Of a stretch of DNA of 64,000 bases, positions 13 through 17,614 are shown in pieces. Location: positions 64,001 through 128,000 of the IMG/VR virus record IMGVR_UViG_3300044692_000034; one strand, given 5' to 3'. The position numbers and the translations under genes are program-made. This DNA is from a virus. The notes below the pieces were generated by a model. That model worked only from the letters and a program-made list of their open reading frames with translations, ran no database searches and was not told the origin of the DNA. The first letter of the stretch is position 1. Every line of letters starts with the position of its first letter.

Positions 13-168
13 CCGAGGGCCGTGCGGGCATGTGACGTAGACGAGGGATCTTCGCTGGTGCTCTGCCTCTTGAGCTACCCGGTCCTTATGAGACGCGAGG
101 CAGGATTCGAACCTGCAACCCCCAGCCTTGCCGGAGAACTCATCCACTTCGGCCCGCACGACCCTCGG
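13..168 (-). ncRNA. YrlA-like Y RNA (circularly permuted tRNA mimic with long terminal Ro60/Rsr-binding stem)
   Basis: On the minus strand the ends 5'-CCGAGGGTCGTGCGGGC and GCCCGCACGGCCCTCGG-3' form a terminal stem, with a GCCGAAG motif on the 5' strand. The T-arm GCAGG-TTCGAAT-CCTGC precedes the D-arm TAGCTCAAGAGGCAGAGC, and the two are joined by a closed acceptor-like hairpin. GCTGG/CCAGC replaces the anticodon stem. Confidence 0.8.
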
Positions 169-284: not shown

Positions 285-1271
285 TCAGCCAACACCATAC
301 GTCATGAAGAAATGGCCGGGATAGTAATCGACGGTGCCGTAATCGATCGGGGGTGAGCCGTGCCCGATCGTCTTGCCACCGCCGACGTATATCTCCACAT
401 GGCCGCCGTCCGCCGAGAACATTAGATCTCCCGGCTGCGGGTGCGTCGCGAGCGTGCCCTTCGATATCTGATCGAGCGTGTCGGTCCCGGGGTCTGGCGC
501 GCCCGCCGCAAGGTAGATGGCCCTCGCCCACTGTGAACAATCTGTGCGGTCCGGTGCCGGCGGCATCGGGTTGTCAGTGAGCGCGCCTTCTTCGCTGTAC
601 CGGTTGTATCCCGTCTTCGTTGAGAGCGTCGCTTCGGCTGCGCTGATGATCTTGGCGCGGACGCCGGCGAGGTCGCCTACGGCTGCGGCTGCGCCACGGT
701 ACAGCGCAGCTTTCTCTTCGACTTCACTGACGTACCATTCGGCGTTGTTGTACGCAAGGATCGCCCGGTGGTAGTCCTGCGGCGCGCCGTTCGCCACGAG
801 CATCCTGGCTGTGGCAGGCACCGCGTCTTTCGGATCGTAGACGTCGCCGCCCTGCCCGTACGCGTCCCACGTACTCGGCGGCCCGTTCTTGATGTTGAAC
901 TGGCCGGGACCGGCGCAGCATCCGTACGCGTTGACGCCCGAGTGCACACCCGGTGCCGTACTCCGCCCATGGTCTGTTTCGATGCTGTAGATGCCGGCGA
1001 TGATCGCCCAGTCGATGTGGTACTCGTCACCTGCCTGCCTGTACAGCGTCAGCATGTCCGGTGGGATGTCAGCTACTGCGACGGTGCTCGGCGCGTACCC
1101 AACCTGACCACCGCCAAGGCCACCGACGAGCATGCCAGCAACGGCCATCAGGAAGACGTAGACCGTGGCGCAGAGCACGAACCCGGCGAGCAGAGCCTTG
1201 CTAACGAGGCTCGTGTCATCCCAGCGTTGCCGTGCCGCCCGAGCAGCGACGGTGACTTCCATGGACGCCAT
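285..1271 (-). CDS. CwlT/VirB1-like conjugative cell-wall hydrolase (TM + lytic transglycosylase + NlpC/P60)
   Basis: N-terminal TM; SLT motifs IYSIETDHG, AGPGQF, AILAYNNA; NlpC/P60 motifs DCSQW, PGDLMF, HVEIYVGGG. Confidence 0.85.
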   Translation of the reverse strand: MASMEVTVAARAARQRWDDTSLVSKALLAGFVLCATVYVFLMAVAGMLVGGLGGGQVGYAPSTVAVADIPPDMLTLYRQAGDEYHIDWAIIAGIYSIETDHGRSTAPGVHSGVNAYGCCAGPGQFNIKNGPPSTWDAYGQGGDVYDPKDAVPATARMLVANGAPQDYHRAILAYNNAEWYVSEVEEKAALYRGAAAAVGDLAGVRAKIISAAEATLSTKTGYNRYSEEGALTDNPMPPAPDRTDCSQWARAIYLAAGAPDPGTDTLDQISKGTLATHPQPGDLMFSADGGHVEIYVGGGKTIGHGSPPIDYGTVDYYPGHFFMTYGVG

Positions 1272-1786
1272 CAGCTAAGCCCCGTGACCATCCAGCGGCC
1301 GTGCTTCTCCAAGGTGAGCTTCACAACGTAGTGGCGGTCGTGAGAGTCGAGTACCCATGCGCTCGTCGCCGCTTCGTTCTGCGTGATGTTCTTCACCTGC
1401 ACGAGCAACACCTTTGCCGTCGTTCTCCCCATGCTCGCGGGGGCTCGCGGCGGGTCAGCGAGCAACTGAGCCTTGAACTCAGGCGCGGCGTCGTTTAGGT
1501 CGCCTGGCGCGTTGCCGTACGAGAACGGCAGGTATTCCTTCAAGAACTGGCGCGTTGTATGGCGCGCTCCGGTGGAGTCCGGGTGCACAGGCAAGCCAGA
1601 CAACGTACCCGGAACCGGTGTCCTGACTGGGTCTGGCGGCTTCTCCGGGGCCGGCGTACGTGTCGGCTTCGGGGGCTGCGTCGGGTGCTGCCCGACAGGG
1701 TTCTGCGCGAGGTACCAAGCGAGCAGAGCAACGGCTACCGAGCAGAGCGCGACAGCCGCCGCTTTAGCTCTCGTCGACATTCTCAT
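1271..1786 (-). CDS. bitopic membrane protein of the conjugation operon (Pro-rich linker, possible NTF2-like domain)
   Basis: N-terminal TM and Pro-rich linker; TGATG-coupled to the downstream hydrolase. Confidence 0.6.
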   Translation of the reverse strand: MRMSTRAKAAAVALCSVAVALLAWYLAQNPVGQHPTQPPKPTRTPAPEKPPDPVRTPVPGTLSGLPVHPDSTGARHTTRQFLKEYLPFSYGNAPGDLNDAAPEFKAQLLADPPRAPASMGRTTAKVLLVQVKNITQNEAATSAWVLDSHDRHYVVKLTLEKHGRWMVTGLS

Positions 1787-3854
1787 CCTCTTCGACGTCC
1801 GTGTCGTCGTCTAGGCGGTCGTCTTGCTCCGTGTGCGTGCTCTCGACAAGCACACGCTTCTTTCTCTTGCTGCGACGCAACCTCCCTACTGCCTCGTCGT
1901 GAAGCTCGCGCGGGGTGCGACCCTCCTTCTGCGCGCCGCCCTCTCTCGTGTCGGCAGGTGTCGGGTCGTCTGGTGCCGTCCCGTCCGTAGCGGTAGCGGA
2001 CCCGCCTTGCGGCACACCCCTCTTGTTCGGATCGTGCTCCGTGCCGACGAGAGCCCACGCCACCCGGTGATTGCCCTTCTCGCCGTTCCCGCCCCCGTCG
2101 TTCAGGGCGGCTAGTTCTTCTTCGGTTGCGTACCGGTACTCGCGCTGACCGCGCTTGCCGCCGGCTCGCTTCCCGCGCCGCACACCGCCCGCTGTGTTAC
2201 GCCCCGGCTTGCTTGCGTCGCCCGGCTCCTCCGGCCAGCGCGGATCGGTGGTCCGCGTCGTCGAGCCACTGTCGAGGACGGCGTCGTCGTCCTCTGTGAT
2301 GTCGTCGTTGTTGCGCTTGCCGGCGTTAGGACCAGCGTCTGTCCCGTTGCCGCGCTGCGTACGGGAGCTGCGGAGCATGGACCGCACCGGGCGCATGGCT
2401 GCGTACATACCTGCGGCCGTGATAGCTGCGCTGCCCGTGCCGAGCCCGGCTGAGCGCCCGTGCGCGGCCTTGGCCAGCTCGTTGACGATGAGCTTGCGTT
2501 TGAGGTACACCGTCCAGAAAAACAACGTCTGGATGATGAACGCGACCTCGAAGCCGGCCCACTGTGTGGAGACGAGCAGAGCGGCGCTGACCCCCATGAG
2601 CACCGCTATGACGATCGCGTAAAAGATCTTGATGAATAGTGCGGTGGCGAGCCGCGTCGCCCACCATTTGACGAGGTCGATGCCGCGCGGGAAGATGCCG
2701 GCGACGAGCACTATGGGAGCGAGCCCGAAGAGCGCGAGCGCGACCACCTGCGCGATTATCACGGTCACAGAGAGACGGCCGAACAGGAGCATGAGAGCGA
2801 TCGCTCCCAGCCCAACAAGGAAGACGACCCTGACTCGTGAGAGCGCGCCGCCGGCTTGCTGGATGTCTACGGCTGCGCTGTCGTTCTTGTCGATCTTGCG
2901 TCCACGGAACTGCGCCGCGTACTTCGGGTCGTCTGGGACCTCTCCGCGTCTGAGTGCGTCGTACTCCTCGTCTCGTGCGTCCGTGCCGGGCGCTTGCCTC
3001 AGGAAGAACTTGGCGTAGCCGCCGTACCCGTTTGTGTCCTGCGTCGTGCTGCTGCGGCACACGTCAGCGAACGGGTTGCCTGGCGCCACCGACAGTGGGT
3101 AGCTGTCGTCTTGCGGCGAGGGTAGGTGCGTGTCGACGCAGTGCTCAAGGCCGCCGAACTCCAGGACGACCCACGGCTTGTAGATCATGATGTCGAACAC
3201 GTGGTCCGTGATGGACGTGCTCGGGTCGTCCCCCTTCTTGCCCACCGCACCGAATCCGTTCAGGAAGCTCGTGCTCACACCGTTAGCGAACTTGACCGCA
3301 CCACCGATGATGTATGTGGGGTTTGAGATGATGACGATGCACGCGACAGTGCATGCCAGCGACAGCGCGAACGCTGCGAAGACCTCGCCGGCTCTGCGTT
3401 GCACGAGCGCTCGCCACATGCCCCACACGCCCGCGCAGATGACCGCGAAGTACAGCCACCCTTGTGCGACGACCTGGCCCTCAAACTGTTGGACAGCTGC
3501 GGCGATAGCAGGCAACGCGCCATGCGGCCCCGTGATCAGCTGGAGATTGAACGCCCACGTGAAGACCTCGATGATCAGATTGAGGCCGTTGCAGATGAGG
3601 TCCCAGCCTTGCTGCGCGAACGATTGCCGCAGCTCCGGCACGATGCCGCCCGGGTTCGTGACACCGAAGTCGACGTGGTAGTCGAGGCCGTAGTTGCTGA
3701 GCGGGTACCTTGCCGCGAGCCCTTGCAGCCCTTGCGTCGGCCCGATGTTGACAAACGGGTCGCTGCCGAGGTATTCGGCGAATGCGCTCGCCGGCCCGAG
3801 TAGGTAGATCCCGAGCAGCCACGCTGCGACCTTGCCGGCTCTGCGTTTGATCAC
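1764..3854 (-). CDS. VirB6/TcpH/ConG-like polytopic membrane channel protein
   Basis: Many TM helices, a central extracytoplasmic loop (KPWVVLEFG) and a hydrophilic C-terminal tail. The GTG start at 3854 overlaps the VirB4 stop (GTGA). Confidence 0.8.
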   Translation of the reverse strand: MIKRRAGKVAAWLLGIYLLGPASAFAEYLGSDPFVNIGPTQGLQGLAARYPLSNYGLDYHVDFGVTNPGGIVPELRQSFAQQGWDLICNGLNLIIEVFTWAFNLQLITGPHGALPAIAAAVQQFEGQVVAQGWLYFAVICAGVWGMWRALVQRRAGEVFAAFALSLACTVACIVIISNPTYIIGGAVKFANGVSTSFLNGFGAVGKKGDDPSTSITDHVFDIMIYKPWVVLEFGGLEHCVDTHLPSPQDDSYPLSVAPGNPFADVCRSSTTQDTNGYGGYAKFFLRQAPGTDARDEEYDALRRGEVPDDPKYAAQFRGRKIDKNDSAAVDIQQAGGALSRVRVVFLVGLGAIALMLLFGRLSVTVIIAQVVALALFGLAPIVLVAGIFPRGIDLVKWWATRLATALFIKIFYAIVIAVLMGVSAALLVSTQWAGFEVAFIIQTLFFWTVYLKRKLIVNELAKAAHGRSAGLGTGSAAITAAGMYAAMRPVRSMLRSSRTQRGNGTDAGPNAGKRNNDDITEDDDAVLDSGSTTRTTDPRWPEEPGDASKPGRNTAGGVRRGKRAGGKRGQREYRYATEEELAALNDGGGNGEKGNHRVAWALVGTEHDPNKRGVPQGGSATATDGTAPDDPTPADTREGGAQKEGRTPRELHDEAVGRLRRSKRKKRVLVESTHTEQDDRLDDDTDVEEDENVDES

Positions 3855-6298
3855 GTCGCCATCTGCCTTGCGCGTTCGGCGGGGTTGGTGTTGAGCTGCC
3901 GCAGGAGGCGCGGGCTGGAGACGTCGATCTGAGCGCGAACCACGTGCCCCCAGATGTCCTTCACGAAGCACTTGCCTTCTCGTGCTTCGACGATCATTTG
4001 CGCCAGCTCGTCGTTGTCGGGGTCGAGGTTGAGTAGCGCGAGCGCGTCGCGTGCCTCCTCCAGCGTCTCCATCCCGAAGATGTAGAACGTGCCGATGAGT
4101 TTGACGATCTCACCCGGGTCGGCGATGTGCTGCGACGCGATGAGAGACGTAGCGAACTTCGCGCGGCCTTGCCTGACAATGTCCCAGATGAGCCGGCGGC
4201 CACTCGGCGTGGCAAGCAGGAAGTGAGCCTCGTCGAGCAGCAGCGTCTTGTGGATCGTGCGGTCATTGTTGATGAGCCGCATGGCGAAGTATGCGATGAG
4301 CCTGAGGGTCGCAACGCTCAGCCGTTCGATCTCGTCGTAGTCGGCGCGACTGACCATGCTGTCCGGGAGCACGAGCGCGCTCGGCCGGATCACCGTGACC
4401 TGCGCACGGTCAATGAACTGGCGTTCGCCGTTGGAGAACGCGAGCCGGGCGAGCCCTGCCGCTGCGCGTGTGCCGAGCGCATCGCCGGCGGCGTTGGCGT
4501 CCTCTCCTGCCGACGTCCTCATGAGCAGGTCGATAACGGCTTGCGCACATGGCTTCTCCATCTCGGCGACGACCTGCGCTGCCTTACGCACCTGCGTACC
4601 CCACGTCGACGGCACGTTCGTCGGTAGCAGCTCCATGAAATACGAATAGGCGCCGTCAACGACCTGCGACCTCGGCAGGACCAGAAATGGATCGAGGAGC
4701 CCAGCGTACATCACCGGGTCGTCCAGATCTACGACTTCCACACGGCCCTTGAGTTCGTCAACCTCCTCCAAGTGGTGGTCGGGCTTCGGGTCGACGTCAA
4801 CGATCTGGCCGCCGGAGAGCGCGTCCCCCACCGCCATCAGCTCCGCCGCCGTGGTCTTACCAGACCCCTGCGTACCGGCGAGCAAGTACGCGCTCGCGCG
4901 GTTCTCCTCGGGGGCGCGGCGCAGGTCGTTGAACAGTGGCCGCTCGTGCCCGTGTTTCGGGCTACGTCGGTCGACGTACCCGATGTACGTGCCGCTCCGC
5001 GAGCCGAGATCGTGCGTGGCAATAGGCATGAGCGTCGCGAATTGCAGCGGCGTGAGCCAATCGCGGTAGTGCGTGACTCGGCCGCCGTCGACGCGTGGCA
5101 GGTGGTCGTAGAACGCCCGCTTTTGCGTCCCGACGGGCAGCCACAACTTCACGGTGCCGAACAAAGCCCGCAGCTCCGAGATCTTCGCTTTGACCTCGTT
5201 TGTGGTCTTGCACCCGCCGATAGCGAACGACACGCTCGTGCGGAGCAGCGGCGGTTGGTCACTGCGCCGGAGCCGCATGTCAAGCCGGCGAGCCTGCCGC
5301 GCGTCGTCCTCGGACGCCCATGACTTCGCGCCGGCTGCGCTCTCGTCCTCATCGCTGAGAACGTTGTCGGCATCGCGGACCTTGCGCTGCACCCTCGAGA
5401 TGGCCTGAGAGTTCGCCTCCCACTCCACATGCATGACCATGTCAACCGGGAAGCTCGCACGCTCCAACGGCGTGAACAAGAACTCCGACTCGCCGGGGAA
5501 GATCGTCTCGTCGGGGAGCGCACCGAGGTACAGGATCGCTTGCCACAGGACGCCCTCTTCGGTGCGTGCCTGGAGGAACCCCTCGGCGTTGCGGATCGGC
5601 TCGTTCCCGAGCGAGAGCATGTCCGTCCCGAGCGGCACGTAGGCGTCATGCCCGTCGTCGGTTTCGACGACCAGGGCGTTCGGCTCCCAGTAATCGTCGA
5701 GTGGTGGCTCGCCGTGCCCGCGATACGCGGCCCGCCGGAAAAGCCATTGCAGCTCTCGGGTGGTGGCACGCCGCGCCGGCAGCCGGTCCGTCACCGTGGC
5801 GTGCATTTCTTCTTCGGCCTCGATAAGACCGTTGATCTCGGCCTTGCTGATCGGGCGGAGCTTGCCGACACCAAGCGCGTCCTCGGCCGTCGCCCGGACG
5901 CGTTCCATGTCGCGGCCGAGCGCCACACCGAACCCGTCGGTTGCTTCGGTCACGATCCTCGGGATGAGGTAGAACTCAGGGAAGTACGCCTTGCGGCCGT
6001 TGATCTTGTCCTTGTGCTGCTCGACGAACTGGCGGAGCAGCTTCTCAGTCTTGTACCGGTTGTCGAGGTTCCGTAGTGCCTGCTGGACGTACGCCTCGAC
6101 CTCGTACTCGCGGTTGACGCGGTACAAGGAGTAGTCGGCCTTGACGTCGTGCGTGAACAACTGGAGCCGCGACGCCCACGAACCCTTGTCGCGAAGGTAC
6201 GGGTAGCTGATCGGGTTGACGCGGTAGATAGCGCCGCGCTCAGCGCCGCGACCGACAAGGATGTTGCCGTGCGCGTATCGCAACGGGAACTTGTTCAC
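3851..6298 (-). CDS. virB4: VirB4-family conjugation ATPase (TcpF/ConE, AAA_10-like)
   Basis: 815 aa; Walker A GTQGSGKT, DVDPK, Walker B LLLDEAH, RQGRAK..SQ; gene context. Confidence 0.9.
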   Translation of the reverse strand: MNKFPLRYAHGNILVGRGAERGAIYRVNPISYPYLRDKGSWASRLQLFTHDVKADYSLYRVNREYEVEAYVQQALRNLDNRYKTEKLLRQFVEQHKDKINGRKAYFPEFYLIPRIVTEATDGFGVALGRDMERVRATAEDALGVGKLRPISKAEINGLIEAEEEMHATVTDRLPARRATTRELQWLFRRAAYRGHGEPPLDDYWEPNALVVETDDGHDAYVPLGTDMLSLGNEPIRNAEGFLQARTEEGVLWQAILYLGALPDETIFPGESEFLFTPLERASFPVDMVMHVEWEANSQAISRVQRKVRDADNVLSDEDESAAGAKSWASEDDARQARRLDMRLRRSDQPPLLRTSVSFAIGGCKTTNEVKAKISELRALFGTVKLWLPVGTQKRAFYDHLPRVDGGRVTHYRDWLTPLQFATLMPIATHDLGSRSGTYIGYVDRRSPKHGHERPLFNDLRRAPEENRASAYLLAGTQGSGKTTAAELMAVGDALSGGQIVDVDPKPDHHLEEVDELKGRVEVVDLDDPVMYAGLLDPFLVLPRSQVVDGAYSYFMELLPTNVPSTWGTQVRKAAQVVAEMEKPCAQAVIDLLMRTSAGEDANAAGDALGTRAAAGLARLAFSNGERQFIDRAQVTVIRPSALVLPDSMVSRADYDEIERLSVATLRLIAYFAMRLINNDRTIHKTLLLDEAHFLLATPSGRRLIWDIVRQGRAKFATSLIASQHIADPGEIVKLIGTFYIFGMETLEEARDALALLNLDPDNDELAQMIVEAREGKCFVKDIWGHVVRAQIDVSSPRLLRQLNTNPAERARQMAT

Positions 6299-6855
6299 GC
6301 ATACACCTCCAGCCGCTCACCGTCTTTGACGTCAACTTCTTGTAGCTCGCCGGCTGCGTCTGCTCGCAGCGTCACACGAGTGTTCTTCATTGCGACCCTG
6401 ACGGGGGCGTTGGTCCTGACCTTGGCGGGGCCGTGTACTCGGCCACGGCGCAGCTCAGCACCCGAGATGTCCCACCGCACCGGCAAATCCTCCTGCCACT
6501 CCTCCCACGTCTCTTCCTCCTCGGGATTGTCGCGTAGGGCCTGGACGGTGCGCGCCCAGAGGTAGATGTGGATGGACCGGCCGTCGGGCGCTTCCTGGCG
6601 TGCCGCAAACGCCACGATGACAGCCAACGACCCGTATCTGAACCACCCGGGCATGAGCCCCATGACGAGCCCCGTACCCGGCGTGTGCGACAGCAGGTAC
6701 ACCACGAGAACCGTTCCGAACACCCAGGCTGCGGTCTGCGCCGGGATGCCGCCGGGGACCATCTTTGTGAGGTCGAAGTCCCATACGCGCCGGATGCGCC
6801 AATCGGTCCTGAAGACGCGTCTGTACGAGACGACGCGTATGCGCCGTTGCTTCAC
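6295..6855 (-). CDS. TcpE/ConD (VirB3-like) membrane protein
   Basis: SYRRVF..WRI N-terminus, two TMs and a PDGR motif; sits just upstream of virB4. The GTG start overlaps the upstream stop. Confidence 0.8.
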   Translation of the reverse strand: MKQRRIRVVSYRRVFRTDWRIRRVWDFDLTKMVPGGIPAQTAAWVFGTVLVVYLLSHTPGTGLVMGLMPGWFRYGSLAVIVAFAARQEAPDGRSIHIYLWARTVQALRDNPEEEETWEEWQEDLPVRWDISGAELRRGRVHGPAKVRTNAPVRVAMKNTRVTLRADAAGELQEVDVKDGERLEVYA

Positions 6856-7193
6856 GAGGTGCCGGCGATCTTGTGCCCGATCGCGGTGACCATGTTGACG
6901 ATGCTGCCGCCGTCGAACACGAACATGCCCGTGATGATCACGGCCGCGATGTAGCTGATGATGATCCCGAGCTTGCGTGCGCCGGGAAACAGGAACGCGA
7001 GTGCACCTGCGGCGACTGCCGCCTTCCACGGGGTCTTGACGTTGTCGAGGACCCAGTTGCCGGCGTTCTCACCGTAGTTCGCGTTGTCGGTTGGGTCGGC
7101 GAGCACGATGGCGGGACCGAGCGCTGCGACCATTGCCATCGCCATGAGCAGCAAGAACACGCGCCGCCCCATACGAGTCACTTGCTGCATCAC
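6852..7193 (-). CDS. TcpD/ConC or VirB2-pilin-like small membrane protein
   Basis: Signal-like N-terminus plus two hydrophobic helices; lies between tcpC and tcpE. Confidence 0.65.
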   Translation of the reverse strand: MMQQVTRMGRRVFLLLMAMAMVAALGPAIVLADPTDNANYGENAGNWVLDNVKTPWKAAVAAGALAFLFPGARKLGIIISYIAAVIITGMFVFDGGSIVNMVTAIGHKIAGTS

Positions 7194-8050
7194 TTATCTC
7201 CTTCGTTCACTTTGGCTACGTACCAGCGGTCGCCCTTGACCAGCACGAGCCGATACCCGAGCGAGTACGACGCATCGTCCTCTTTTGCTGTCACCGTCGC
7301 GTACACCTGCCGCTCTCGTCCCTTCGCCGGCGCGAGCAGCCCGACACTGTTCACCTGGACGAGCTTCATCACGACAGGGCTCGCGCCGAGCTGCGCACCC
7401 GGGAGCGCCGGGCCGGCAGAGACGGCGTCTGCGTCGCCGGCAAGGTACGCCGTGAAGAACCTGTTGACGACGTCGAGTATGTCGCTCGACTCGTCGGGGC
7501 TGAGCTGGTCGAGGTCGTCGTTGTTGGGGGTGGCAACGAGCGGCGCGCTTGTCAGGCTCGGCAGCGCGTACACGACCAGCCCGTGGTTCTTGTCCGTCTC
7601 TACGGGCACGCCGAGGTATCTCGTCACAGCACGCCCGTTAGCCTGCATGGTCACAGCGACTGTGATGAGTGCGCGCTGCGACCCGGTCGTCGTCTCGTCA
7701 GACACGGCCGTGGCTTGCACGACCTGCGCCGGGGCCTTCTCGCCCCAGGTGGGGACCACGCGAGCACCAAGATTCGTCGAGACGAACGACTCAAGGTCCT
7801 GCTCGTAGAACCCGGGGTGCTTCGGATTGTACGAGAAGTACGTTCGCGCGAAGTCCATGGCGTACGCGCGAGCTGCATCGTCAGGCCACTGCGAACGCTG
7901 TTCTACGACCTTCGTTGGTCCTGCCGGCTTCGTCGGCGTTGTCGCAATAGCCGTGAGCCCCCGGAGCGCGATGATCACCAGGACGAAAGCGACCAGTCCT
8001 CGGCCTGCCTTCTTGGCGTACCCCTTGAGCTTCGTGCGCGTTGCCGCCAT
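7190..8050 (-). CDS. TcpC/ConB (VirB8-like) conjugation protein
   Basis: N-terminal TM and two NTF2-like halves (AMDFARTYFSY; VNRFFTAYLAGD; YSLGYRLVLVKGDRWYV). Confidence 0.85.
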   Translation of the reverse strand: MAATRTKLKGYAKKAGRGLVAFVLVIIALRGLTAIATTPTKPAGPTKVVEQRSQWPDDAARAYAMDFARTYFSYNPKHPGFYEQDLESFVSTNLGARVVPTWGEKAPAQVVQATAVSDETTTGSQRALITVAVTMQANGRAVTRYLGVPVETDKNHGLVVYALPSLTSAPLVATPNNDDLDQLSPDESSDILDVVNRFFTAYLAGDADAVSAGPALPGAQLGASPVVMKLVQVNSVGLLAPAKGRERQVYATVTAKEDDASYSLGYRLVLVKGDRWYVAKVNEGDK

Positions 8051-8156
8051 CCAATCCTCTCCGTGTTGGTGGCCGCTACATGATGCGGCGTTCGTTCGGT
8101 GAGGTGATGGTAGCCGGTCTGTCTAAGCCGCGACCATCATGAAACGGTGCGCATGC

Positions 8157-8420
8157 TTACATCGGCGGGATGGGTGGGCTGCTAGGCGGCCCAAGCGACT
8201 GTGACGCTTGCCACTGCCGCGCACGTTCCTCTGAGACGACACCGTGCCCCTTGCAGAAGTGACACATGATCGTATAGCGGCGGCCGGTGCCCGGCTCCTC
8301 CCTGCGCTCCACACCACCCTCACAGCATGGGCGCGGGCACTTGACGGACCCGCTCCCCAGCAATGCCGCCAAGTACCCGCCGGGCACGATACCGACGTTC
8401 TCGCTCATGCCCATCGCCAT
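8157..8420 (-). CDS. small zinc-finger hypothetical protein
   Basis: CPRPCC and CHFCKGHG motifs. Confidence 0.5.
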   Translation of the reverse strand: MAMGMSENVGIVPGGYLAALLGSGSVKCPRPCCEGGVERREEPGTGRRYTIMCHFCKGHGVVSEERARQWQASQSLGPPSSPPIPPM

Positions 8421-8439: not shown

Positions 8440-9036
8440 CTAGCAGCCGACCCAGGCGCCGGCCCCTTGTTCCTTGTAGATGCGTGCCGCGCACGCGTCC
8501 TGGTCTCCTGGCACGTTCACGTCCAAGCCTTGGCAGACGCCGCCGGGCGAGTAGTGCGACCTGAGCGTCTGCCACCGGCCCGTTGCCCCCGACGAAGGAT
8601 TGGTGTTCGCCGGCCCCGTCGAGTAGTTGCCGTGAGACTCGTCCGCGCACGCCGGCAAGTTGGCGGCCACCCCGGACGAGACAACGCCGCTCGGTGCCTG
8701 CGGCGCGCCCATGGTGCGTGTGAGCAGCGGCGGCCCCGGCCACGGCACGCGCGCGCGCAACGCGCGGAGCTGCCGCAACGACTGCGCGATCTCGCCGCAG
8801 TGCGATGGCCTGATCTTGTGCGCACCGCTGTGGTAGCGATACCTGACCCCGAGGCGCCGGATGTTCCTGCCCGGTGCCCTGCGCCCGAACTTGTGACGTA
8901 CGGCGTAGTACTGCGCCGAGTAGTCCACGAGGAGTTTCCTCTCTCCGCAGACGGTGTGGCTCTGTTGCGTCGCCGCTTGCGCTGACCCTGTATGGAGCGC
9001 AGCGGTCGCAACGAGGACCGCTGTTAGCAGCCTCAT
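8440..9036 (-). CDS. secreted Rpf-like (resuscitation-promoting factor / lysozyme-fold) transglycosylase
   Basis: Signal peptide; C-terminal CADESHGNY...GRWQ...DQDACAARIYKEQGAGAWVGC resembles the Rpf consensus. Confidence 0.7.
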   Translation of the reverse strand: MRLLTAVLVATAALHTGSAQAATQQSHTVCGERKLLVDYSAQYYAVRHKFGRRAPGRNIRRLGVRYRYHSGAHKIRPSHCGEIAQSLRQLRALRARVPWPGPPLLTRTMGAPQAPSGVVSSGVAANLPACADESHGNYSTGPANTNPSSGATGRWQTLRSHYSPGGVCQGLDVNVPGDQDACAARIYKEQGAGAWVGC

Positions 9037-9110: not shown

Positions 9111-10127
9111 CTAGAAGAGCTGGTCCACAGAGGGGTACACGGTCAGCGGGGTTTGAGGCCAGCCGCGCATTGCTGTCGGTTGCTCCCTGACTTGTAGCCG
9201 CTCAGGGAAGTCGGGCAGCATGTCGGCCTTGCCAGGAAGGCCGTGCGCTCGCGCCCACCGCGTCCCCATCTGCTTCACGTGGACGGCGGTCGGCTTCTGT
9301 TCTTCGATGTCGAAGATGGGTTGGATCGGGTTGTGGGCTCGCCACACGAGGTCCCACATCCAATTTTCGTCGACGGGGCGTGCTTTTGGGCCGCTCTCTC
9401 CACCGATGATGATCTCGTCGATGTCGCGCAACGACAAGCCGCCATCGGTCTCGTCATGACCATCGTGCCAGTAGTGCCGCTCGCGCATGTCACCGGGGTC
9501 GCCGGTCTGCATGTCGCGCGGGTACGGATCATAGCTCGTGGTGTACATGGGGAGTAGCGGCCCGAGCAGCGGCTCAGCGCTGATAAACCGCACTGCCGTG
9601 TTCGTGTCGCGAAGCAGGTCGGCGCGCGACACGAACGCACGGTTCTCGATCGTAACGCCATGCCAGATGTGCGCTGGTGTCGGAAGGCCACCGCCGGAGA
9701 TGCTGTCGGCTGCTGCGTGGTGTCCTTGCGACGTGAGCAGAATGCGCAGGTTGGCCCAGAACGCCGTGTTGTTGAGCAGATTCCTCATTCGCTCAGGGCG
9801 TTTGGTCAGGACGCGGTAGATGTGCTGTGGTGCGGCCATCATCGTCGCGTACACCTGCAAGATGAACCCGACCTGGATGTCGTCGTGGAACAGGTCGCTG
9901 AGCGAATTGACGAAGATCATGCGCGGCGACGTCCATCGGATGGGGACTTCAAGTCTGTTCGGATGAAGCGTGATCGGTATCTCGCCGCGCTCGAACCGCA
10001 TGCCGCGCTCACGGAACGGCATCGTGTCGGCGATGTAGCAGTGAGCGCATCCGGGGCTGATCTTCCGACAGCCCCACGTCGGGTTCCAAGTGTCTGTCGC
10101 CCATGAAATAGCCGTGCGACCAGGCAC
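9111..10127 (-). CDS. phage Gp37/Gp68 (DUF5131) radical-SAM-like protein
   Basis: TWNPTWGCRKISPGCAHCY, FVNSLSDLFH, LTKRPER, SAEPLLGP, IGGESG. Confidence 0.9.
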   Translation of the reverse strand: MPGRTAISWATDTWNPTWGCRKISPGCAHCYIADTMPFRERGMRFERGEIPITLHPNRLEVPIRWTSPRMIFVNSLSDLFHDDIQVGFILQVYATMMAAPQHIYRVLTKRPERMRNLLNNTAFWANLRILLTSQGHHAAADSISGGGLPTPAHIWHGVTIENRAFVSRADLLRDTNTAVRFISAEPLLGPLLPMYTTSYDPYPRDMQTGDPGDMRERHYWHDGHDETDGGLSLRDIDEIIIGGESGPKARPVDENWMWDLVWRAHNPIQPIFDIEEQKPTAVHVKQMGTRWARAHGLPGKADMLPDFPERLQVREQPTAMRGWPQTPLTVYPSVDQLF

Positions 10128-12094: not shown

Positions 12095-13171
12095 CTACGC
12101 CACCGCGACTTCGTGGATCAGCGCGCGCAGCTCTCGCTTCTCCCGCGAGTTCCGCAGCATGGAATCGGTGAAGCGCGTCTCGCGACTGCGGTTGCCCTTC
12201 AGGTGGTCGAGGAACTCCGTGCCGGCGAGATGCAGCCCGTAGCCTGTACCACGGTGCGCGTCCGGGATCGTCGGGGAGTTCTCCAGCAGGTTGCGAACGG
12301 CCGCGCGAGCCGTCTCGATGTTCTGCACCTTGGTGTCGCTGACGACGCTCGTGATCGCCTCGGGCGGCATCGGGATGAAGCGCTTCACGAACTCCTCGCG
12401 GCGCATCTTGTTGATCTTCAGCTTGGCCAGTTCGTTGGCCATCGTGACGTACACCGGCGTCTGCGTGCGCAGGCCCTTCAGCGCGTCGCGGGCCTCCTCG
12501 ATGCGCTCGGCGTAGTTCGCCGTGTGCCGGAACGTGAAGTTCGTGCCGAGGCGGTTGGCCTCGGCCTCGCTCGCGGCCTCGGTGTTGGCGCAGACGACGC
12601 GGACGGTGGTGGAGCGTGCCTTGAGGCTCGCTGTCCCGTCATGCGCCCACGTGACACAGATGAACGGAAGGATGGGGGAGTCGTCGCCCTTGATCTGGAT
12701 GGGCTCGTCGAGCCACGCGAGGACCCAGCAGAGCGCGCCCATCTTGAGGACGCCGGCGGACTCGTACTTGGCGTTGCCGGACGTGTCCGCGCCGAGGATC
12801 ATGTCCATGACGTCCCAGCCGACCGAGTTCTGGATCAGGGTGTACGACTCCTTGCCCTGGAACATGATCTGGTCGTGCGTCGGGTCGCCGGGCATGTCCT
12901 TGACCATCGTCTTCCAGCCGGGCGTCTCGCCCTTGCAGTAGAAGATGTCGCCGTCAGGCATGACGATGTACGGCTTGTCGAACCCGGGCCTGGCGAAGTC
13001 GTCGAGGTCGACGGGGTCGCCAATGCGAGCGGAGCGCTCCTCGACGATCGTGAAGTCATGGCCCGCCAACTTGATCGCTTCCTCTCGGCCGGGGAAGTCT
13101 TCCAGGACCGTTCCGAGTCCGTGCCACGCGGGCTCGTTCACAAAAAAACCGTCTTCGAAGTAGGCGGGCAT
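12095..13171 (-). CDS. DUF932 (LGT_TIGR03299) phage/plasmid protein
   Basis: PAWHGLG, YESAGVL, AHDGT, VRVVCANT, FRHT motifs. Confidence 0.9.
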   Translation of the reverse strand: MPAYFEDGFFVNEPAWHGLGTVLEDFPGREEAIKLAGHDFTIVEERSARIGDPVDLDDFARPGFDKPYIVMPDGDIFYCKGETPGWKTMVKDMPGDPTHDQIMFQGKESYTLIQNSVGWDVMDMILGADTSGNAKYESAGVLKMGALCWVLAWLDEPIQIKGDDSPILPFICVTWAHDGTASLKARSTTVRVVCANTEAASEAEANRLGTNFTFRHTANYAERIEEARDALKGLRTQTPVYVTMANELAKLKINKMRREEFVKRFIPMPPEAITSVVSDTKVQNIETARAAVRNLLENSPTIPDAHRGTGYGLHLAGTEFLDHLKGNRSRETRFTDSMLRNSREKRELRALIHEVAVA

Positions 13172-13217
13172 GCTAGGCGCTCCTCGGGGTGTTGGCGGTG
13201 GGCTGCATTGAGGAGCA

Positions 13218-13261
13218 AAGCTACAGGTACGCACTGTTCCTCTCAACAGTTGCCGTCAACT
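13218..13261 (-). promoter_or_regulatory. putative promoter with adjacent palindrome
   Basis: TTGAGA-17nt-TAGCTT; AGTTG-ACGG-CAACT inverted repeat just upstream of the -35. Confidence 0.4.
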
Positions 13262-13267
13262 TTGCAT

Positions 13268-13681
13268 CTACACCGCCAGTCCAAACTGCACATGTCCGCC
13301 GCGTAGCTTCTTTTCGGTATGCGGATACTCGAACTCGAACGTAAGCTGGTCGCCGTAGTCGACGTAGATCGGCTCACGCACGCGAGGCGTCACGGGGCTG
13401 CCGTCAAGCGGCTCATTGAAATGCGGACGGCGTACGCTCGCGACGCGTACCAACGGGACATGCACATCCCCGGAACCGTCCCACAACTTCGCGAACGCGC
13501 TCGACGCCGCCACGTGCTCGACATAGCCGCGCACACGCGCCCGGTCTGCCGGCGCATCCCGCACATCCACCGTGCCGGCGTGCGCGCCCTGCATGAGCAC
13601 AACGACCTCACGCTGAGACGCCCACGCGCCGCGCAGCTCCCACGCGATTACATCGGGTTGCCGTTCAGGGTGCAGACTCAC
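13268..13681 (-). CDS. hypothetical protein
   Basis: ORF in the minus-strand gene array. Confidence 0.5.
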   Translation of the reverse strand: MSLHPERQPDVIAWELRGAWASQREVVVLMQGAHAGTVDVRDAPADRARVRGYVEHVAASSAFAKLWDGSGDVHVPLVRVASVRRPHFNEPLDGSPVTPRVREPIYVDYGDQLTFEFEYPHTEKKLRGGHVQFGLAV

Positions 13682-13860
13682 TCGGCGTCTCCTGATGAGC
13701 CACGCCGAGGTAGAAGCCGCTCGTGCTCAGCTCGCCCAGCAAATCGCCGGCGGCGTGAGAGTCAGAGCGTAGGCCGTTGACGCGTCGCATCGCAGCCATG
13801 AGAGCCGACACCGCATCGAGAGCGTTGACGCGGTGCAGAGTGTTCGGCGGGCGGTCCACG

Positions 13861-14409
13861 TCACCCATCGTAAACCACCGGCACAACCGCCTTCGGTATG
13901 TACAGCGGGTGCTCAGGCTCGCCGCCCTTGCACAGCCTGAGCGCGTACAGCTCGCTACGCGCCGCGTCCCGTAGCAGGCGCGTTACGTGCTGAGCCCTGC
14001 CGTCGACAGGGCCTTTGTTGGCGCCCCACGCGCACACGATGCGGCCGGCGCGCGCAGCCTCTTGCGTGAGGTAGTTGTCGTTGAGTGGCCCTACCGGGTC
14101 CTCGGCCGCCGCCATGTCACGCGGCTTCGTCGCTCGGTACGCGTACAGGTTGCAGACGACCAAGCCGCCATACCCCCAGCGCTGCGCGTACCCGACGCAC
14201 TTACGCACCGTCGGGTCGAGCTTGTGTTCCGTCGCTGTGCTCGGGTTGAGCATGACGAACAAACAGATCTGGACGGTGTGGTCCCACACGCGCCAGAGCC
14301 GGTATCTGTGAACCGGCTCGGCAGTCCCGTTCTTGTGGTACGTGGCTCCCTCTCGACCAAGGATGTCGCCCCACGCTTCGATGACGGGAGACTCAGTTGC
14401 CTCGTTCAC
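13861..14409 (-). CDS. DUF1643 family protein
   Basis: YRLWRVW, FVMLNPSTA, DPTVRKC, NLYAYRATKP, CAWG, PEHPLY. Confidence 0.9.
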   Translation of the reverse strand: MNEATESPVIEAWGDILGREGATYHKNGTAEPVHRYRLWRVWDHTVQICLFVMLNPSTATEHKLDPTVRKCVGYAQRWGYGGLVVCNLYAYRATKPRDMAAAEDPVGPLNDNYLTQEAARAGRIVCAWGANKGPVDGRAQHVTRLLRDAARSELYALRLCKGGEPEHPLYIPKAVVPVVYDG

Positions 14410-14623
14410 CTTGCGACTCCTTTATGACGTCGTCGATGGCCTTGTCGACGGTGCGCCGCATCAGCTCCTTCATCTGTGGATCGTCCATGTACAGCCACGG
14501 GCTCAGGTCGTAGATGCTGCATCCCAGGGCCTCGGCGACCTCGCCGAGGTTCTTGCCCTCGGTGCTGTACATGTGCCGAGCACGCGCCATAGCTTCTTCA
14601 GAGAGCCGAAACGGGCGAGCCAT
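14393..14623 (-). CDS. small HTH DNA-binding protein
   Basis: GKNLGEVAEALGCSIYDL; GGAGG RBS. Confidence 0.6.
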   Translation of the reverse strand: MARPFRLSEEAMARARHMYSTEGKNLGEVAEALGCSIYDLSPWLYMDDPQMKELMRRTVDKAIDDVIKESQGERGN

Positions 14624-15893
14624 CGCCGTATACCTCCGCCGCTCGCAGATGCTCTTCGACTTGCGCGATGTACCGCTGGACGTCAGCGGCCGGACCCCGC
14701 TCGGCCGGTGCGGTCGGCAGCGACCACACTTCCCACCAGTACATGTCGATTCCCTCGAACCATGCTTGCGCGACACCGACTCTGGCTTCGCTGCCCTTGC
14801 GCCAGCGGTACAGCGCCCTCTCTGAGAGCCCCAGCCGCTTGGCCAAGCTCTCTTCGCTGAGCACCGTCACGTGCGTGCCGTCTTCAGCGATGTCGACGTA
14901 AGCCGCGAGGTACGCCTCAATGGCAGCAAGCAACGCCCGTGAGTCGATTGTCTTGTAGTTGCGCTGTGTGCGCACCTGCGTCGACTTCGGAACTACCTGG
15001 TCGGGGTGGACCCCCTCGCGCTTCTCCTTCCGGAGTCGGTAGCCGATACGACCGACCTCCAGAGCTTGAGCGTGTCGGACGGGGTCCTGCTTACGGCGCT
15101 CGCGGTACGCCTTCTGCGACGCCCTGACCTTCTCTCTGTTCCGCGCGCGCCACCGCCTTGACGCGGCCGTGTCAAGCTCGCGCTTGCGTTGCCGTGCCTC
15201 CTCGGTCATGACACCTTTCCGGTACGTGACCCAGTTCTTGTCGCACGTCTTGCAGTAGTACCGCTCTTCGCCGTAGAACCCTTCGGCGAGAGGCTTGACG
15301 TCCTTGCAGCGTGCGCAGCGCCGCACAACGACGCCGTCTTCCTCCCAGGTGGCGCGGCGAGCTTGCGCCCGCTCCTCCCGCTCAGCTTCTTCTTTGTCGT
15401 GGCACGCCTGGCAGACAGCCGACCGCCGCCGCGACACACCACGGCCCTTCTTCCCGTCCCCCCACGGGAACGCGCGGCCCGGCTTCTTCTCAAGGCAGTG
15501 GAAGCAATGCCGCCACGTACACAGCGGCCCATCGAGCTTGCACTCCTCGCACTTCTGCTGCCGGCCGACGAGAGTGCCCCTACCGCACGGGCACGGCTTC
15601 ACCACCGTCTGCTTGCCCGTCCGGGTCTGTCCCGCAGAGCGGGCAAGCTCCGACGAAGGCACCGTCTGGTTCGACCCAGGATCCGCAGCCGGTGCAACGG
15701 CGAGCGCCGTGACCGACGAACCGCCAGCGTTCGTCGTCTCCGCGTCCGACTCGTCGGTAGAGATACCGCCCACGAGCAGCTTCAGCGTGGCACCACCCTC
15801 GCGAGTCGATCCACCTGAACGTCTCCGACCGCGCGGTCGCGGTTGAGCCGTCGAAAGGTCCTCCTTCGACGGCTCTGCGGGCCATGCGCTCAC
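14598..15893 (-). CDS. multi-zinc-finger / basic / HTH protein (start uncertain)
   Basis: Several CxxC pairs, an Arg-rich helix and a C-terminal HTH (LAKRLGLSERALYRW). Confidence 0.6.
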   Translation of the reverse strand: MSAWPAEPSKEDLSTAQPRPRGRRRSGGSTREGGATLKLLVGGISTDESDAETTNAGGSSVTALAVAPAADPGSNQTVPSSELARSAGQTRTGKQTVVKPCPCGRGTLVGRQQKCEECKLDGPLCTWRHCFHCLEKKPGRAFPWGDGKKGRGVSRRRSAVCQACHDKEEAEREERAQARRATWEEDGVVVRRCARCKDVKPLAEGFYGEERYYCKTCDKNWVTYRKGVMTEEARQRKRELDTAASRRWRARNREKVRASQKAYRERRKQDPVRHAQALEVGRIGYRLRKEKREGVHPDQVVPKSTQVRTQRNYKTIDSRALLAAIEAYLAAYVDIAEDGTHVTVLSEESLAKRLGLSERALYRWRKGSEARVGVAQAWFEGIDMYWWEVWSLPTAPAERGPAADVQRYIAQVEEHLRAAEVYGDGSPVSAL

Positions 15894-16819
15894 TTGACCG
15901 ACGCGAACAACGCCGCGACGCGCTCGATCTCGTCGTCGGTCGTCCGCGCCTCGACGGCCTGGATGGGCTTGCCGGCGCGGGCGCGCTCGAGGAGCTTTGC
16001 GCGCTGCTCATTGCGCGTGTCATGCAGGCCCTCGATGTAGCTCGCCGGGCGCACGAGACGTTCCATGGCGCGCCCCGCAGCCGCCATCTGCCCCTCGCTG
16101 AGCACGTCCAGGTCGAGCAGGCCCGCAGGCGGGAGCGCGCGTAGCGTCTCCTGCCACGCCAGCTCCAGCACGACGAGGTGAGCGTTATTCTCGTTGCCGC
16201 GAGCGACGACCACCCCAAGCGCCTGATTCGTACGCTTCGTCCATCTGACGACGGCAGCCTTGCCAGTGCGCTTGAGCCCGACGTACACCATGCAGACGAA
16301 CTTGTGCGACGACTGGTCGCGCGGGAGGACGTAGTGCGCGTCGCGAACCAGCTCGCGCGGCACGTGCGCGAGCGAGACGGTCGCCTCGATGTTCATGCCG
16401 TCGATCTTGGTGTTGATGTCGATGGCCTTGAGCTGTTCCGTAAGGTCGACCCACGACTCGGCGTGCCACACGCCCCACTCGATGCGCTCCTCGACGACAG
16501 TGGTCGCCGGCGCCGTAGCCAGCTCCACCGGCGGCGGCTGCTCCTCTTGCGCGAACGGGTCCACGTCCGCCTGAGCGGGAGCCGGTGCGGCTGCCGGCGC
16601 CGGTGCGCGCACGGGCTCGATGATCGGCCCTTCGTCGAACGGCGCGAAGAGGTCGAGGTTCAGCTCGGGCTGCTGCTCGACGGCAGGTGCCTCGGCGGGT
16701 TCGTTGACGACGACGCGCCTGACCTCGTGCTGCGCCTCCACGAGCTTGCCGGACGCCTTCATGAGCGAGACGTCCGCGCTCGCCCTGCCGACCTTCAGCG
16801 TTGTCCTTTGGTTTGCCAT
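15890..16819 (-). CDS. ku: divergent Ku-like DNA end-binding protein
   Basis: HYVLP...GLKRTGKAAVVRWTKR...LVVLELAWQETLR parallels the prokaryotic Ku core; carries a Pro/Ala-rich insertion. Confidence 0.7.
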   Translation of the reverse strand: MANQRTTLKVGRASADVSLMKASGKLVEAQHEVRRVVVNEPAEAPAVEQQPELNLDLFAPFDEGPIIEPVRAPAPAAAPAPAQADVDPFAQEEQPPPVELATAPATTVVEERIEWGVWHAESWVDLTEQLKAIDINTKIDGMNIEATVSLAHVPRELVRDAHYVLPRDQSSHKFVCMVYVGLKRTGKAAVVRWTKRTNQALGVVVARGNENNAHLVVLELAWQETLRALPPAGLLDLDVLSEGQMAAAGRAMERLVRPASYIEGLHDTRNEQRAKLLERARAGKPIQAVEARTTDDEIERVAALFASVK

Positions 16820-16849: not shown

Positions 16850-17614
16850 CTACGCGCCGCGCGTGGTGGTGTGCTTGCCGAGACTGCGGCTCCGTCCCGG
16901 CTCCGCCTGCTCGTCTCCGTCGTCGATCCGGCCGCCGCGCGTCTCGTACATGGCAGCGCTCGCCGACGCGTATACGTCGCTGCCCTGCGATGCGAACGTT
17001 GCCGCGAGCCCGGAGCTGCGACGCATCGACGCCCGCACGCCGGTGTCCGTGGCGGCGTAGTTGAACGCCTCGCCTGCGTCGGCGAGACCCATCTCCCGTG
17101 CCGTCGCCTCGGCCGACTGGTTGGCGCCGATGTACAGGAACCGCCAGCCCTCCTTCTTGCGCTCCGCGATGGCCTCGGCGCACGTCTCCGCCGACGCCTC
17201 GCTCTTGTTGTTCTTGCCGTCGGTGACGATCACCATGAGCACGGAGTCGTCTTCGTCGACGACCTTGTCGATCTCCGCGCCGTACTCGATGATCGCGTCG
17301 AATAGCGGCGTCTTGCCGCGCGGTTTGAAGTCGTCTGACGTGATCTCGTTGACCTTGTCGGGCTTCTCGCCTTTGACCTTGATGCGCAGCACCTCGTGCG
17401 GCGGCTGCCAGTCGAACCACGCCATCCAGATGCGCGTGCCTTTGACACCCTTGAGCCCTGCCGTGAACTCATTGACGCCGACGATGGTTGCCTCCTTGAT
17501 CCTGCCCATCGAGCCGGACTCGTCGAGCAGCATCGCGACGATGCGCTTGCCCTTCGCCTTGGTGTCCTTCACGGCCTTTGCCGCATCGGCGGCCGACTTG
17601 TGGTCGTCTGACAT
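16850..17614 (-). CDS. von Willebrand factor A (MIDAS) domain protein
   Basis: LLDESGSM, PRGKTPLFDA, IVTDG, GWRFLYIGAN. Confidence 0.85.
   Translation of the reverse strand: MSDDHKSAADAAKAVKDTKAKGKRIVAMLLDESGSMGRIKEATIVGVNEFTAGLKGVKGTRIWMAWFDWQPPHEVLRIKVKGEKPDKVNEITSDDFKPRGKTPLFDAIIEYGAEIDKVVDEDDSVLMVIVTDGKNNKSEASAETCAEAIAERKKEGWRFLYIGANQSAEATAREMGLADAGEAFNYAATDTGVRASMRRSSGLAATFASQGSDVYASASAAMYETRGGRIDDGDEQAEPGRSRSLGKHTTTRGA

Follow-up and report, generated by a model that had tools for sequence, protein, structure and literature searches.

What could a virus gain from a conjugation channel on its own? The question is raised by a DNA stretch that comprises bases 64001–128000 of the 141,737-bp virus record IMGVR_UViG_3300044692_000034 (65% G+C). 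We call this 64,000-nucleotide stretch the window; genome coordinates refer to the whole record. The minus strand at window positions 285–8420 carries, according to Pfam and NCBIfam, a Gram-positive mating-pair module of the Tcp/Con type, that is, the channel part of a type IV secretion system (T4SS), with genes for TcpC, a small VirB2/TcpD-like protein, TcpE, VirB4/TcpF, a VirB6-like protein, a 171-amino-acid (aa) protein and an NlpC/P60 hydrolase, in that order. The original prediction held that no coupling protein or relaxase accompanies this operon within the window, and considered that the partners might lie elsewhere in the genome, that they might be borrowed in trans, or that the channel might export something else. 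Here we report that the closed phage genome encodes no relaxase of any family searched and no VirD4-type coupling protein, and we favour the explanation that the operon is a relaxase-independent envelope channel module, acquired by the phage and kept as a working unit. Our confidence in this explanation is about evenly balanced.

Absence of a relaxase and a VirD4-type coupling protein

Family searches covered all six frames of the whole 141.7-kb record, with matches reported at E ≤ 1. None of seven relaxase families, i.e. Relaxase (PF03432), Rep_trans (PF02486), TrwC (PF08751), Replic_Relax (PF13814), MobA_MobL (PF03389), Mob_Pre (PF01076) and TraI_2 (PF07514), gave a match, and the same is true for RepSA and for the tyrosine recombinase family Phage_integrase (PF00589). 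The families that would reveal a VirD4-type coupling protein, T4SS-DNA_transf (PF02534), TrwB_AAD_bind (PF10412) and TraG-D_C (PF12696), are also without a match. Altogether, the 12 whole-record searches yielded just two matches, both to FtsK_SpoIIIE: one over threshold at genome 140224–141642, outside the window, and a sub-threshold one to the P-loop of the operon's own VirB4. The claim that the window holds neither partner is thus borne out. The idea that the partners are elsewhere in the genome fails for the relaxase and is half right for the coupling protein, given that a membrane-anchored ATPase of the FtsK/TcpA fold is encoded ~12 kb beyond the window end. A coupling protein and relaxase just outside the window would have made this a conventional conjugation system, but the search of the rest of the record returned no such pair.

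Several other approaches gave the same picture. Querying the record by tblastn with the 875-aa and 602-aa coupling-like ATPases and the Replic_Relax proteins of cellular relatives (see below) returned nothing, and a strict histidine-hydrophobic-histidine (HUH) nuclease motif is present in none of the record's predicted proteins. A strict Walker A motif occurs in the six frames only in VirB4 and the FtsK-like protein, besides a loose match in a poorly coding frame. Finally, Pfam and PHROGs scans of ~80 larger proteins returned replication, recombination, nucleotide and RNA-repair functions, and nothing relaxase-like.

Two other proteins were considered as relaxase candidates and rejected. A PD-(D/E)XK protein adjoining RecT is read as a recombination exonuclease. 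The second, 363 aa long, carries the PHROGs annotation "DNA topoisomerase" (E 1e-98; genome 54136–55227, minus strand; locus L005:16136–17227). The top matches of its confident structural model (predicted local distance difference test score, pLDDT, 91.5) are Topo VI subunit A and the MksG-type nuclease of C. glutamicum. An Arg-Tyr-Tyr motif, a Toprim Glu and a DxD motif are all invariant, and more than 6000 cluster representatives match the protein. The protein fits the virus-encoded "Mini-A" family of type IIB topoisomerase-like proteins (PMC7671362). It is the only predicted enzyme of this genome that might link covalently to DNA through a tyrosine; being a Topo VI-A/Spo11-like member of a very large virus family, however, it is unlikely to be a T4SS-specific partner or a hidden relaxase.

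A closed tailed-phage genome

The record is from a genuine tailed phage of soil, since it encodes virion proteins (portal, prohead protease, major capsid, major tail and a 2057-aa tape measure protein in PHROGs) as well as a large terminase (Pfam; genome 43000–44652). Almost all genes are on the minus strand, and the major capsid protein has its closest counterparts in phages of Rhodococcus and Mycobacterium (36–42% identity). An independent 47.8-kb contig of the same phage, from a second assembly, crosses the ends of the record and carries the FtsK-like gene. Gene sizes before the FtsK-like gene in this contig are those found at the start of the record. In both, 8689 nucleotides (nt) separate the starts of the FtsK-like and portal genes, and the stretch that runs from a 126-aa gene across the record ends to the start of the FtsK-like gene measures 5016 nt in the contig versus 5018 nt in the record. 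These matching spacings mean that the ends abut; the record is therefore closed, with no genes missing, and represents a circular or circularly permuted genome.

Where the ends join (genome 141643–141737 plus 1–742), the last small gene and the FtsK-like gene are separated by ~0.9 kb that is non-coding and contains several strong G+C-rich hairpins (e.g. 552–578 and 609–635) and loose repeats; a terminator cluster, an origin and a packaging site are all conceivable roles for this stretch. Following the direction of transcription, ~52 kb separate the large terminase gene and the portal gene (131121–132854), with ~77 small genes and the FtsK-like gene in between, a layout that is unusual for a siphovirus.

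As the closed genome has no relaxase, the module by itself would not carry out canonical relaxase-piloted DNA transfer, and ordinary conjugation is probably not what the channel does.

Cellular relatives of the cassette

How unusual is a channel cassette without its partners? Only 19 close matches to VirB4 were found in a large protein collection, while a collection of species genomes yields 171 relatives, nearly all from Solirubrobacterales and other Thermoleophilia, which suggests that the phage infects hosts of this group. To compare gene content we combined a tblastn tally with a VirB4 tree, restricting counts to loci with enough flanking sequence. In the main clade of the tree (69 rows; support of 100 in the Shimodaira–Hasegawa-like approximate likelihood ratio test, SH-aLRT), 54 of 55 such loci encode an 875-aa coupling-like ATPase, followed in nearly all by Replic_Relax; this pair is located 1.5–6 kb downstream of the hydrolase gene. 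The ATPase, which has no Pfam match, carries a Walker A motif and a pair of membrane helices at its N-terminus. In about a dozen main-clade loci an integrase gene follows Replic_Relax.

The phage and a second phage-type contig from another sample (SRR29078251), L010 (79% identical), are found in the remaining set of 16 rows. In two Gaiellales loci of this set, tcpC is directly preceded by genes for a DotL-like coupling protein (matching IcmO in the PDB, E 2.5e-8) and a Replic_Relax-like protein. The layout of ICEBs1 and Tn916, which the original prediction took as its benchmark, therefore holds for these two relatives, but not for the 54 others, in which the pair is downstream of the hydrolase. 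An initial label of "pair absent" for L082 was dropped, as a different coupling protein was found upstream there, and L084 retains fragments of a coupling protein/Replic_Relax pair. For L025, L026, L028, L013 and L083, no coupling-type P-loop gene is present within ~10 kb, and the flanks consist of ordinary or non-conserved genes. Six genomes of the 16-row set lack any homologue of the 875-aa ATPase, and only two have Replic_Relax, remote from the cassette. Taken together, the pair normally accompanies the cassette in this family, although its position varies and it has been lost several times. The phage has neither version of the pair and probably took the channel without the partner genes. 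Only the cassette genes are common to the phage and the cellular loci; outside the cassette, no gene is conserved among the loci that we call clade A, and no candidate cargo emerged.

Loci such as L016, L031, L047 and L071, together with ~50 others, make up a large family of Solirubrobacterales integrative conjugative elements, so far uncharacterised and ordered as the TcpC-to-hydrolase cassette, sometimes DNA methylases, the 875-aa ATPase, Replic_Relax and, in about a dozen, an integrase; some genomes have two copies. In the metagenome contig L014 the cassette is present twice, as mirror copies that meet within the VirB6-like gene in inverted orientation, which is probably an assembly fold-back. 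Among viruses, a single-protein VirB4 scan of other viral contigs gave nothing; an alignment-based scan pointed to three large viral contigs, which were rejected as relatives because they match only in the ATPase domain (22–26% identity) and have no other cassette genes.

Long-term residence under purifying selection

Several observations bear on how long the cassette has been in the phage. Its G+C content is 64.7%, compared to 65.0% for the phage and 70–73% for the cellular copies. L010 has the same genes, for DUF5131, a 198-aa protein and an 87-aa protein, ahead of tcpC. Comparison of the phage with L010 gives ratios of non-synonymous to synonymous substitution rates (dN/dS) of 0.15–0.24 at a dS of ~1 for every cassette gene, and all nine genes of the unit are intact, as are the catalytic motifs of VirB4. 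The phage-like composition, the shared upstream junction and the dN/dS values argue for long residence rather than a chimeric assembly, and point to a long-term phage resident under purifying selection. For these reasons it is very improbable that the cassette is a functionless passenger or that a phage and an integrative element were wrongly joined when the record was assembled: although the record is metagenome-derived and classed as linear, and several cellular VirB4 copies have internal stops or splits, the phage genes are intact and mostly overlap by 1–4 nt, and the circle is closed by an independent assembly of the same phage.

Could the remote FtsK-like ATPase serve as coupling protein?

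The genome does encode one candidate motor. The FtsK-like protein has hydrophobic helices in its first 95 residues and a Walker A motif, GEPGSGKS, at residue 216. Its confident model (pLDDT 89.5) matches the FtsK motor (Foldseek E 1.6e-20) and TcpA of plasmid pCW3 (E 7e-19; template modelling score 0.74 by target length) about equally well, and a sequence search of the PDB returns the same pair. TcpA is the coupling protein of the pCW3 Tcp system, and Tcp systems have FtsK-like coupling proteins; since the phage channel genes are of the Tcp type, and ATPase and channel both derive from elements of one host group, the remote ATPase might take the role of TcpA and, together with the channel, move phage DNA into adjacent cells with no classical relaxase involved; the virus would then be a conjugative phage.

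We consider this scenario unlikely. No coupling protein is encoded alongside the channel genes, the only FtsK-type gene being 64–68 kb and more than 70 genes away from the operon. The best NCBIfam match of the FtsK-like protein is plasmid TraB (5e-13), and its nearest homologues, with 40–43% identity, are Tra proteins of actinomycete integrative elements; the three that we examined all adjoin RepSA, an excisionase-like gene and an integrase (Tra-RepSA-Xis-Int), with no T4SS. Such modules are the classic integrative conjugative elements of actinomycetes, which transfer DNA without a T4SS. The phage protein belongs to this family by sequence, but the phage has neither RepSA nor an integrase, and the model of the protein has no C-terminal winged-helix DNA-recognition domain. 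A search for TraB-type recognition repeats in the 0.9-kb non-coding stretch near the gene gave no clear 8-mer array. Moreover, among 19 virus records that encode relatives of the FtsK-like protein (31–39% identity; 14 of the records at least 90% complete), not one has VirB4 (AAA_10); deposited actinophages commonly have FtsK-like genes without a T4SS, and a strong member of the family occurs in only three of six clade-A host genomes. We also know of no T4SS that exports DNA without a relaxase. The Tra-type relatives lacking a T4SS, the absence of VirB4 from the 19 related viruses, the commonness of such genes in actinophages and the 64–68 kb distance together lead us to rate a coupling role for this predicted ATPase as possible but unlikely. 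A related proposal, that channel and membrane-bound FtsK/TraB-like pump provide a second, virion-independent route of spread by passing phage DNA between touching cells without a relaxase, would merge two actinobacterial conjugation mechanisms on a virus; we regard it as a long shot.

Could the partners be provided in trans?

Alternatively, a resident element of the host might lend its coupling protein and Replic_Relax, which would act on a site resembling an origin of transfer in phage or other DNA and use the phage channel. The presumed host order is very rich in elements that have the ATPase and Replic_Relax (54 loci, with two in some genomes), and the channel proteins of these elements are homologous to those of the phage. 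However, the identity of 35–41% between the VirB4 proteins makes it doubtful that coupling protein and channel would recognise each other across systems, and resident elements bring their own channel, leaving the phage channel without an obvious use. In addition, four of six clade-A genomes lack Replic_Relax and none has the 875-aa ATPase, and this family offers no defined origin of transfer to search with. Borrowing in trans is therefore improbable in our judgement, and of the proposals in the original prediction, export of something else is better supported.

A channel-only module kept by the phage

Our favoured explanation is that a tailed phage of Solirubrobacterales-like actinobacteria took the channel-only, mating-pair formation module of a Gram-positive Tcp/Con-type T4SS from a conjugative element, leaving the coupling ATPase and relaxase behind, and that the phage lineage keeps the module as a working unit. 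In infected cells, the wall would be breached and the envelope spanned by an assembled, VirB4-powered channel, the cargo of which might be protein, nucleoprotein or something else. VirB4 clusters without a relaxase within 60 open reading frames (ORFs) have been classified as putative protein-exporting T4SSs (Guglielmini et al. 2011, PMC3158045), and the phage operon falls into this class, with no relaxase anywhere in the closed genome.

A number of points weigh against this explanation. The channel is predicted from its genes. A relaxase of an unknown family could be present among the ~100 small ORFs outside the family-library scans, and the predicted ATPase of FtsK/TcpA fold could, after all, be a coupling protein. 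With regard to the relatives, the six genomes without the pair are mostly draft metagenome bins, so that absence from them is weak evidence, and L084 keeps its coupling-gene fragments; the phage status of L010 rests on 8 kb of common gene order. Finally, we know of no well-established protein-exporting T4SS of this Gram-positive type.

The channel operon

All genes described here are on the minus strand, with window coordinates. The first channel gene (7190–8050) encodes TcpC/ConB, a VirB8-like bitopic protein of 286 aa (PF12642, E 5.5e-19) with a single N-terminal membrane helix at residues 18–36 and homologues in 59 related loci. It is followed by a 113-aa protein (6852–7193) with two membrane helices and a weak TrbC/VirB2 match (E 0.0023), in the position of VirB2/TcpD/ConC; its gene overlaps each neighbour by 4 nt, and a gene of ~100 aa holds this position in all relatives. 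The TcpE/ConD-like membrane protein (6295–6855) matches PF12648 below the Pfam cut-off (E 5e-6), but orthologues carry this domain, and its length of 186 aa is the same as in L010. The VirB4/ConE/TcpF-type ATPase (3851–6298; 815 aa) matches AAA_10 (1.7e-46) and has TcpF as its best NCBIfam match (9.3e-50). Its Walker A motif, GTQGSGKT, is at residue 475, and the family alignment shows no variation in the columns of Walker A and of the DEA Walker B motif.

The next gene (1764–3971) encodes a polytopic VirB6/ConG/TcpH-like membrane protein of up to 735 aa, the start being uncertain. The protein has several hydrophobic segments and a below-cut-off match (6.9e-29) to the NCBIfam family CD3337/EF1877 mobilome membrane protein; it is 68% identical in L010, and relatives have weak TrbL matches. 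The 171-aa protein (1271–1786) has an N-terminal membrane helix as its predicted anchor and no family match, with homologues at the equivalent position in five clade-A loci. The last gene (285–1271) encodes a 328-aa cell-wall hydrolase with a C-terminal NlpC/P60 domain (PF00877, E 1.1e-5), and its N-terminal 190 residues share 45–62% identity with the product of the final cassette gene in the cellular relatives. Neighbouring genes mostly overlap by 1–4 nt, with larger overlaps on both sides of the VirB6-like gene. The VirB8-like, VirB6-like and small membrane proteins thus share one operon with the wall hydrolase, in an order that is kept in more than 80 loci. A scan of the operon for promoters and terminators gave chance-level results only.

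Genes flanking the operon

The description of the neighbouring genes in the original prediction stands, with differing firmness. DUF5131, encoded upstream of tcpC at window 9111–10127, is firm (Pfam E 3.7e-61). The Cys-rich, zinc-finger-like 87-aa protein (8157–8420, minus strand; 67% identical in L010) was read from the sequence by inspection, and is present only in phage copies of the cassette, being absent from the cellular loci. Between these two lies the gene for a secreted Cys-rich protein of 198 aa (8440–9036, minus strand) with a signal-peptide-like N-terminus, which is probably the first gene of the unit. This protein is the most conserved of the block (84% identical in L010; dN/dS 0.145). 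It has no match in Pfam or the PDB and no counterpart in the cellular loci; the link to Rpf comes from a protein language-model atlas, in which the nearest clusters carry PF06737 (Transglycosylas; score 0.94). It is possibly an Rpf-type lytic transglycosylase, which we take as a lead only.

Downstream of the operon, a match to the Y RNA-like YrlA (window 56–124, minus strand; 31 bits, E 0.001) is below the Rfam cut-off. A Ro60/TROVE gene (genome 62038–63864, minus strand) comes just after this match and is followed by RlaP-type RNA-repair genes, so that a predicted RNA quality-control module is located directly downstream of the T4SS operon. Further into the window (12095–16819, minus strand), genes for DUF932 (TIGR03299, phage/plasmid-like), DUF1643 and a Ku-like protein are grouped, followed by one for a VWA protein (16850–17614). 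The presence of a Ku gene is reminiscent of mycobacteriophages Omega and Corndog, which circularise through host end-joining.

Comparison with known systems

The closest homologues of every cassette gene, in the same order, are those of the Solirubrobacterales/Thermoleophilia elements (e.g. L016, L031, L047 and L071; VirB4 35–48% identical). The phage operon is trimmed relative to these: it has none of the ATPase, Replic_Relax and integrase genes that the 54 of 55 main-clade loci add to the cassette always, nearly always and in about a dozen cases, respectively. Sequence identity to characterised plasmid systems is only ~25%. Nevertheless, the pCW3 Tcp locus of Clostridium perfringens (TcpA, TcpC–TcpH and TcpM) also combines TcpC, TcpE, a TcpF-like VirB4, a VirB6-like protein and a peptidoglycan hydrolase in one operon, and the phage FtsK-like protein shares the fold of TcpA. 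In contrast to pCW3, the phage has no TcpM-like or other relaxase of the families searched, and its FtsK-like gene is far outside the locus. ICEBs1 and Tn916 (ConQ, NicK, ConB–ConG and CwlT) have the same core order of a VirB8-like protein, small membrane proteins, VirB4, a VirB6-like protein and a wall hydrolase. Their coupling protein and relaxase genes are directly upstream of the channel genes, whereas the phage has the Cys-rich protein, the secreted Rpf-like protein and DUF5131 in that position; in addition, the hydrolase activities of the phage appear to be split between genes at the two ends of the unit.

Channels powered by VirB4 that have neither a relaxase nor a VirD4-type coupling protein are exemplified by ComB of Helicobacter pylori, which takes up DNA, and Ptl of Bordetella, which exports toxin. 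The phage channel resembles these systems in all three respects, but ComB and Ptl are Gram-negative and chromosomal and have a known cargo, whereas the phage module is of Gram-positive type and borne by a virus. The actinomycete Tra/TraB translocases of double-stranded DNA, encoded beside RepSA, Xis and Int, resemble only the FtsK-like protein, with the differences in gene context and domain structure given above.

Phage and conjugation genes also travel together in Streptococcus, where tandems of a phage and an integrative conjugative element are reported to consist of two complete elements that site-specific integration has placed next to each other (Sci Adv 2026, PMC13651849). The case described here differs from that account in that a trimmed channel operon with phage composition is located amid the non-structural genes of the phage. 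The literature that we searched describes no tailed phage carrying a complete T4SS channel operon under selection, and among 50,697 deposited phage records VirB4 is matched by only three Firmicute records and the VirB6-like protein by none.

Conjugation channels and virions are usually treated as two alternative vehicles of mobile DNA. As the closed genome lacks both the relaxase and the coupling ATPase found with the cassette in 54 cellular elements, the question is sharpened from whether this is a conjugative phage to how a virus would benefit from the channel alone. The relatives with and without the partner pair provide a natural test case for asking if a Gram-positive T4SS channel can function in the absence of a relaxase, and the cassette opens up an unstudied family of conjugative elements in Thermoleophilia.

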